A stretch of 64,000 nt of DNA, taken from assembly GCF_054482525.1 (NCBI RefSeq), contig NZ_CM137006.1; one strand, 5' to 3'. This document shows, in pieces, positions 34,921 to 35,499 of this stretch. The stretch's first letter is position 1, and each line of letters opens with the position of its first letter. A program made the translations under genes and the position numbers. Under the pieces are notes generated by a model that saw only the letters and a list, made by a program, of their open reading frames with translations, had not been told where the DNA came from and did not search any database.

Positions 34921-35499
34921 ATGAGTGAAAAAAGCATTGTTCAGGAAGCGCGGGATATTCAACTGGCAATGGAATTGATCACCCTTGGCGCTCGTTTGCA
35001 GATGCTGGAAAGCGAAACACAGTTAAGTCGCGGACGCCTGATAAAACTCTATAAAGAACTGCGCGGAAGCCCACCGCCGAAAGGCATGCTGCCATTCTCA
35101 ACCGACTGGTTTATGACCTGGGAACAAAACGTTCATGCTTCGATGTTCTGTAACGCATGGCAGTTTTTACTGAAAACCGGCTTGTGTAATGGCGTCGATG
35201 CGGTGATCAAAGCCTACCGTTTATACCTTGAACAGTGCCCGCAAGCAGAAGAAGGACCGCTGCTGGCATTAACCCGTGCCTGGACATTGGTGCGGTTTGT
35301 TGAAAGTGGATTACTGCAACTTTCCAGCTGCAACTGCTGCGGCGGCAATTTTATTACCCACGCTCACCAGCCTGTTGGCAGCTTTGCCTGCAGCTTATGT
35401 CAGCCGCCATCCCGGGCAGTAAAAAGACGTAAACTTTCCCAGAATCCTGCCGATATTATCCCACAACTGCTGGATGAACAGAGAGTACAGGCTGTTTAA
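34921..35499 (+). CDS. flhC: Flagellar master regulator subunit FlhC
   Basis: [49 protein letters not shown]...; 192 aa, Cys zinc site. Confidence 0.95.
35430..35456 (+). promoter_or_regulatory. Sigma28 promoter for motAB-cheAW, located inside flhC coding region
   Basis: TAAACTTT-N11-GCCGATAT. Confidence 0.75.

Follow-up and report, generated by a model that had tools for sequence, protein, structure and literature searches.

The window (the entire 64,000-nt stretch of DNA that was analyzed) derives from an Escherichia coli strain other than K-12 and carries, in this order, the fliD-fliC-fliA region, the flhDC-motAB-cheAW-tar-tap-che-flhBAE array, and cutC with torYZ. The junction of interest shows the synteny flhD-flhC-motA-motB, with a flhC product that is 99% identical to E. 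coli FlhC. The following features were delineated at this junction:

34921..35499, + strand: flhC coding sequence, 192 aa (open reading frame list; annotated as flhC in an identical genome)
35419..35436, + strand: flhC codons 167-172 (GTA AAA AGA CGT AAA CTT), frozen across species; -35 element and the 11 nt upstream of it
35430..35437, + strand: sigma-28 -35 element, TAAACTTT (sequence reading and motif scan)
35438..35448, + strand: promoter spacer of 11 nt, CCCAGAATCCT (sequence reading)
35449..35456, + strand: sigma-28 -10 element, GCCGATAT, overlapping FlhC Ala177-Asp178
35463..35557, + strand: MotR sRNA, 95 nt, orthologue of b4828 (K-12 annotation, alignment, and published +1 primer and T7 template)
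35464..35481, + strand: flhC codons 182-187 (CAA CTG CTG GAT GAA CAG), equivalent to MotR nt 2-19, with frozen synonymous sites
35467..35474, + strand: MotR nt 5-12, CUGCUGGA, candidate 5' strand of an anti-terminator, including the TGC (nt 6-8) that is altered in MotR*
35497..35499, + strand: flhC stop codon, TAA (open reading frame list)
35501..35517, + strand: MotR seed region, nt 39-55, with the M1 triplet GUG (nt 46-48) at 35508..35510
35522..35529, + strand: MotR nt 60-67, UCCAGCAG, candidate 3' strand of the anti-terminator; nt 63-67 form the base of the terminator 5' arm
35525..35557, + strand: intrinsic terminator, with 35525..35534 pairing with 35541..35550, a 6-nt loop, and T8 at 35550..35557
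35558..35625, + strand: rest of the motA 5' UTR, carried on read-through transcripts
35612..35618, + strand: motA Shine-Dalgarno sequence, GGAAGGA
35626..36513, + strand: motA coding sequence with a GTG start, first gene of motAB-cheAW (open reading frame list; annotation of the identical genome)

The promoter departs from the sigma-28 consensus TAAAGTTT-N11-GCCGATAA at two positions, matching 7 of 8 bases in each element with a spacer of 11 nt, and its 27 nt align with K-12 without a change. The sequence-only reading had placed a near-consensus sigma-28 promoter at 35430..35456, in the 3' end of flhC, and these coordinates are exact to the base. The distance to motA, which it gave as about 170 nt, was measured at 170 nt (from 35456 to the GTG at 35626); the promoter does precede the flhC stop codon, by 40 nt (from the end of the -10 element to 35497, the first base of the stop) rather than the approximately 45 nt that had been proposed. 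A scan of the window for the sigma-28 motif with at most three mismatches produced five matches against a random expectation of 0.64, a count that none of 100 shuffles reached; judged by position, three of the other four matches fit class 3 promoters, namely those of fliD (9520, - strand), fliC (9639, + strand), and tar (40016, + strand). FliA-dependent reporter activity of the flhC-internal promoter has been demonstrated, FliA binding at the same place was detected by ChIP-seq in Salmonella (S. Typhimurium), and the same source describes this promoter as the most conserved FliA promoter and as a constraint on FlhC Ala177-Asp178 (Fitzgerald 2018 preprint, 10.1101/188474). Compared with the FliA class 3 promoter of motAB-cheAW reported in that work and by Fitzgerald et al. 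2014, the promoter in the window shows no difference at all.

Another line of evidence comes from the comparison of this locus across Enterobacterales. A scan with FlhC, limited to one genome per species, yielded 80 loci, 79 of them with usable sequence, and nine further loci from more distant genera were fetched via FlhC homologues. The promoter together with the fixed 40-nt gap between the -10 element and the stop codon was found in 87 of the 88 usable loci. Within the scan, the -35 element reads TAAACTT followed by T or A in all 79 loci, the -10 element reads GCCGATAN in all 79 (with GCCGATA invariant), and the 40-nt distance is the same throughout; the spacer is 11 nt long and variable in sequence in 78 loci and 10 nt long in the remaining one. 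Eight of the nine further genera (Yersinia, Dickeya, Edwardsiella, Xenorhabdus, Photorhabdus, Proteus, Rahnella, and Providencia) have the same arrangement, with TAAACTTT as the -35 element; the exception is the Sodalis locus, which lacks an adjacent motA.

The codon usage of the flhC genes from the 79 species shows where this conservation goes beyond the protein. At conserved FlhC residues, an average of only 62% of the species share the commonest codon, and 14 of the 139 conserved-residue codons are near-fixed, that is, have the commonest codon in at least 97% of the species. Twelve of these 14 lie within codons 167-187, in blocks that coincide with the -35 element (codons 167, 168, 170, 171, and 172 are each represented by a single codon in 100% of the species), with the -10 element (codons 177-178), and with codons 182-187, which are located downstream of the sigma-28 transcription start; no such restriction is seen in the 11-nt spacer, whose codons are free to vary. 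The other two near-fixed codons are 8-9 (CAG GAA, 34942..34947 in the window). The motif does lie in a coding sequence, and both Ala177-Asp178 and the Lys-Leu pair are conserved residues, so that the sigma-28 match could, in principle, be kept solely by the amino acid requirements of FlhC, a coding constraint that merely resembles a promoter. Against this reading, synonymous sites are frozen exactly at the -35 and -10 elements, with a free spacer between them; furthermore, FlhC D178A is fully functional and the promoter is FliA-dependent (10.1101/188474). We therefore regard a coding-only origin of the motif as extremely improbable and rejected it. The codon comparison thus shows selection on the promoter elements that is independent of the encoded protein, and the proposal that the flhC coding sequence doubles as a class 3 promoter holds up on both the published FliA-dependent activity and the frozen synonymous sites. 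The present analysis extends the published work on the promoter by these frozen sites, by the finding that the -10 element always lies 40 nt from the stop codon, and by another frozen block past the transcription start. Our literature search, which was incomplete in coverage, and the two main sources (Melamed 2023 and 10.1101/188474) yielded no discussion of synonymous-site constraint in flhC, and 10.1101/188474 mentions neither synonymous sites nor the terminator; the freeze of codons 182-187 at the nucleotide level may be of interest to specialists.

The RNA that starts at this promoter can be identified by orthology. The RefSeq record of MG1655 contains the ncRNA motR (b4828; 1977208..1977302, - strand, 95 nt), which overlaps the last 37 nt of flhC, and K-12 motR aligns with 35463..35557 of the window with 93 of 95 identical positions. 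Its first base, A35463, lies 7 nt past the -10 element, and its 3' end is within the T-run. In K-12, MotR is an RNA of approximately 95 nt that is sigma-28-dependent, binds Hfq, and derives from the motA 5' UTR (Melamed 2023, eLife 12:RP87151, PMC10578931). The same paper compares wild type with a fliA deletion by MotR northern blot, documents Hfq binding by Hfq co-immunoprecipitation and RIL-seq, explains the longer bands by transcription past the MotR terminator, and states that the MotR promoter in the flhC coding sequence also drives motAB-cheAW; both the cloning primer and the T7 template of MotR begin with ACAACTGCTGG, which corresponds to 35463 of the window (PMC10578931). The RNA in the window and K-12 MotR share the locus, strand, 95-nt length, +1 (ACAACUGCUGG), terminator, promoter within flhC, and downstream motA; they differ by two substitutions in the single-stranded seed region, G to U at nt 40 (G>T at 35502) and A to U at nt 49 (A>T at 35511).

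The suggestion that a short RNA from this promoter would be MotR is thus borne out by the orthology with b4828 at the flhC-motA junction, the 93/95 identity, and the published promoter and size, and the comparison with the published coordinates that had been recommended places K-12 b4828 at 35463..35557. The ends that had been proposed, a start near 35465 and termination at 35558, are good approximations, off by 2 nt and 1 nt, respectively; read-through into a motAB-cheAW mRNA, also proposed, is stated for K-12 in Melamed 2023 (PMC10578931). Neither a gathering-threshold search of the whole window against Rfam 15 nor a permissive search of 35380..35680 identified a MotR family, the permissive matches being limited to chance-level hits of microRNA type with E-values of 0.24 to 8.4. 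Rfam 15 lacks a MotR model and therefore gives no independent family score, and motR is also missing from the PGAP annotation of the identical sequence.

Taken together, these observations identify the feature, with a probability of about 0.95, as the well-known class 3 (sigma-28/FliA) promoter of motAB-cheAW, located within the final 70 nt of flhC and serving as the source of MotR. FliA-RNA polymerase would recognize TAAACTTT-N11-GCCGATAT and start at A35463; part of the transcripts would stop at the terminator (hairpin at 35525..35550, T-run to 35557) to give the 95-nt, Hfq-binding MotR, and the others would read through to give the motAB-cheAW mRNA. FliA dependence, the transcription start, Hfq binding, and the targets are taken from the K-12 literature, and MotR is presumably expressed in the window strain as it is in K-12. 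Both the promoter and MotR are already published and annotated in K-12, so that the sequence-only reading was right without being new: knowledge of the promoter goes back years, and MotR was characterized in 2023. What goes beyond it (the codon freeze, the structural hypothesis discussed below, the polymorphism beside the seed, and the loss of the terminator in some isolates) amounts to modest leads rather than established results, which specialists may find useful. Still, this case indicates that reading raw sequence can recover real dual-use DNA: about 130 bp comprise the end of a master-regulator gene, a flagellar promoter of the next tier, and the start of a regulatory RNA.

The terminator scan found a stem-loop at 35525..35550 with 10 pairs, 6 of them G-C, followed by T8 that ends at 35557, the next base (35558) being G; the hairpin and T-run that had been noted before motA at 35525..35558 are therefore present, with the end of the T-run moved by one base. 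The fold of the 95-nt MotR has the same hairpin at its 3' end, and RNAalifold recovers it as well. Across 67 distinct sequences, the stem is 98.5% paired, with compensatory changes in 6 of the 10 pairs, a level that was not reached in any of 500 shuffles; the lower stem is invariant, and the upper stem covaries. The hairpin with its U-tract is present in the sampled Enterobacteriaceae, Erwiniaceae, and close relatives (these 67 sequences plus K-12), to which it is largely confined; its distance from the predicted start is 88-96 nt, except in one Pantoea locus, where it is 115 nt. Serratia, Pectobacterium, most Brenneria, and the more distant genera either lack the U-tract terminator or have a different one. 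The hairpin ends MotR and, from its position, may also end the flhDC transcript.

An 11-nt deletion, TGCTTTTTTTT, equivalent to 35547..35557 and seen at two loci, removes the end of the 3' arm and the entire T-run. No fewer than 46 complete E. coli genomes carry it, many of them from clinical ST361-like isolates, and these represent at least two allele backgrounds. The deletion, by which some clinical isolates have lost the MotR terminator, should abolish MotR and raise read-through into motA.

Within E. coli, MotR was found in 5376 of 5426 complete genomes; nt 1-36 are exact in 5348 of the 5376, and the middle of the RNA is polymorphic. Exact 95-nt alleles, designated by the bases at nt 40 and 49, were counted among these 5376 genomes:

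G40/A49 (K-12): 2897 genomes
T40/T49 (window): 566 genomes
G40/T49 (O157:H7): 583 genomes
T40/A49 (none found): 0 genomes

The remaining genomes carry other variants, which, in those sampled, involve C54A and a change in the terminator loop. Alleles with U49 account for at least 1149 of the 5376 genomes (at least 21%), O157:H7 included. Because U49 is also the consensus across species, A49 appears from this comparison to be a state derived within E. coli, with the K-12 allele being the commonest single one.

The polymorphism is located in the seed region of the RNA. In K-12, MotR nt ~39-55 base-pair within the coding sequences of fliC and rpsJ, and MotR raises S10 and flagellin mRNA levels and increases the number of flagella; the M1 seed mutation changes nt 46-48, and chromosomal motR-M1 mutants have fewer flagella and reduced motility (PMC10578931). 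The A49U substitution adjoins the M1 triplet, the GUG itself being kept in the window strain, and introduces a U:U mismatch into the predicted rpsJ duplex. RNAduplex places nt 39-55 of K-12 MotR on rpsJ +140..+155 at -22.4 kcal/mol, in agreement with the published site at about +150, compared to -18.0 kcal/mol for the window allele (about 4.4 weaker) and -11.2 kcal/mol for M1. With the window allele, the fliC site predicted for K-12 (+25..+41, -17.4 kcal/mol) disappears; the fliC region from -70 to +133 is identical in the two strains. Given these predicted energies, target regulation in the window strain may differ from that in K-12. The rpsJ region +100..+200 is essentially invariant across 5425 genomes; thus, a common natural polymorphism adjoins the MotR seed while the rpsJ target site does not change.

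These data bear on the possibility that the hairpin and T-run are primarily the class 1 terminator of flhDC, in which case the 95-nt RNA would be a side product of class 3 transcription rather than a selected regulator, and might be weakened in this strain. The hairpin starts 26 nt past the flhC stop codon, where an operon terminator is expected, and the promoter persists without the U-tract terminator outside Enterobacteriaceae, Erwiniaceae, and close relatives, implying that it does not need MotR; the weakening of the predicted rpsJ and fliC pairing by U49 and the E. coli genomes that have lost the T-run point in the same direction. However, MotR binds Hfq and its seed mutants are impaired in flagellation and motility (PMC10578931), the seed region retains its GGUG core widely across Enterobacteriaceae, and the roles of flhDC terminator and of MotR 3' end are compatible rather than mutually exclusive. 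On balance, the side-product explanation appears unlikely.

A separate question is why the synonymous sites of codons 182-187, past the transcription start, are frozen. MotR nt 5-12 are a perfect 8-bp complement of nt 60-67, a segment that spans three flanking nucleotides and the first five of the terminator 5' arm. Of the shuffled sequences, 0.3% contain a complement of at least 8 nt between the 57 upstream nt and the 15-nt segment examined, and 0.1% do so when only the first 19 nt are considered. In the nascent transcript of 68-78 nt, when the 3' arm is not yet made, the helix is part of the minimum free energy fold (-20 to -22 kcal/mol), and it is the nascent-transcript fold in 65 of 67 species. 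Conceivably, then, nt 5-12 pair transiently with nt 60-67, delay formation of the hairpin, and thereby determine how much MotR is made relative to motAB-cheAW read-through; on the flhDC mRNA, we speculate, translating ribosomes would mask the 5' strand (codons 182-185) and class 1 termination would be efficient. The frozen codons themselves are in line with this scheme, and so are several further observations: nt 60-62, which lie outside the terminator stem, are invariant or nearly so; the invariant lower and covarying upper stem are consistent with a segment that has to match three partners; in a rare E. coli variant, C5U, the pair is retained as G-U; and MotR* (TGC to GAG at nt 6-8), which abolishes the predicted helix, was reported as "more abundant" and found by chance (PMC10578931).

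Several observations speak against this scheme. Both strands of the helix are invariant in the 67 sequences, which makes the covariation count uninformative and leaves the helix without covariation support. The terminator is favored at equilibrium both in the full-length RNA, by only about 3 kcal/mol, and in the full 5' UTR, with anti-terminator pair probabilities of at most 0.11, so that any anti-terminator role would be kinetic; moreover, just 5 of the 10 nucleotides of the terminator arm would be sequestered, which could permit rapid strand displacement. The structure preferred by RNAalifold has a small 5' helix of nt 7-10 with nt 25-28 (alignment columns 7-10 with 26-30). The frozen 5' block, ACAACUGCUGGAUG, is still present in Yersinia, Xenorhabdus, Photorhabdus, and Pectobacterium, in which its partner has shrunk to 5 bp or is missing; the block thus outlives its proposed partner, which weakens the hypothesis. 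The nine loci from distant genera lack the U-tract terminator and, therefore, cannot serve as a test of the helix. Finally, a strain in which flhC was replaced expressed motA sufficiently for full motility (10.1101/188474). We accordingly consider the transient pairing doubtful, and offer only as a tentative suggestion, against which the odds are clear, that the first ~19 nt of the sigma-28 transcript are under RNA-level selection for a co-transcriptional anti-terminator formed by nt 5-12 and 60-67. If such an anti-terminator does operate, one and the same hairpin would be a leaky stop for the untranslated class 3 transcripts, from which MotR as well as the motAB-cheAW mRNA would result, and an efficient one for the translated flhDC mRNA, and the greater abundance of MotR* would be explained. 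Neither Melamed 2023 and 10.1101/188474 nor our literature search, with its incomplete coverage, provided a description of an anti-terminator in MotR or the motA leader.

The arrangement resembles sRNAs made from 5' UTRs by premature termination and leader attenuators, in which, likewise, a promoter-proximal terminator yields a short stable RNA along with a read-through mRNA; attenuators also possess an upstream segment complementary to the terminator 5' arm. Compared to attenuators, the alternative helix here is weaker than the terminator and has no support from covariation, and, unusually, MotR starts in the coding sequence of the upstream gene. We know of no ligand, leader peptide, or protein sensor at the motA leader. 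Beyond MotR, this leader is identical to that of K-12. In the minimum free energy fold of the full leader, the Shine-Dalgarno GGAAGGA is paired with an upstream CAUCCU (35591..35596); the leaders of Serratia and of some Pantoea-like species likewise contain a CATCC motif.

Upstream of flhDC, the uspC-flhD intergenic region (33787..34567, a gap of only about 780 bp) is apparently free of insertion sequences, and none is annotated between uspC and flhD in the identical strain 7/2; in contrast, MG1655 carries IS1H upstream of flhD (RefSeq annotation). The K-12 annotation also includes an antisense RNA, AsflhD, across the 5' end of flhD.

The other sigma-28 matches in the window differ in quality and context. 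The match at 40016..40042 (+ strand), upstream of tar (coding sequence from ~40074), is a perfect-consensus promoter, TAAAGTTT-N11-GCCGATAA; an Rfam match to C0465 RNA (91 bits, 39949..40026, - strand) overlaps it on the opposite strand. Two divergent matches, 9520..9546 (- strand) and 9639..9665 (+ strand), lie between fliD (8070..9476, - strand) and fliC (9742..11430, + strand). The match at 32196..32222 (- strand), antisense within otsA, has three mismatches, with a perfect -10 element (GCCGATAA) and a poor -35 element, and may be noise, given that about 0.6 chance matches are expected in the window. The fliC gene encodes 562 aa, and the K-12 fragment used in the MotR paper matches it exactly only as far as +133; the two strains therefore probably have different H types. 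At 11599..11621, a FliX-like terminator with two mismatches was detected; the window thus holds two of the four published sigma-28-dependent sRNAs. At the gathering threshold, the Rfam matches in the window comprise only C0465, a full-length MicL (368 bits, 53285..53592, + strand) in the cutC region, and three tRNAs, tRNA-Gly, tRNA-Cys, and tRNA-Leu, at 21421..21720.
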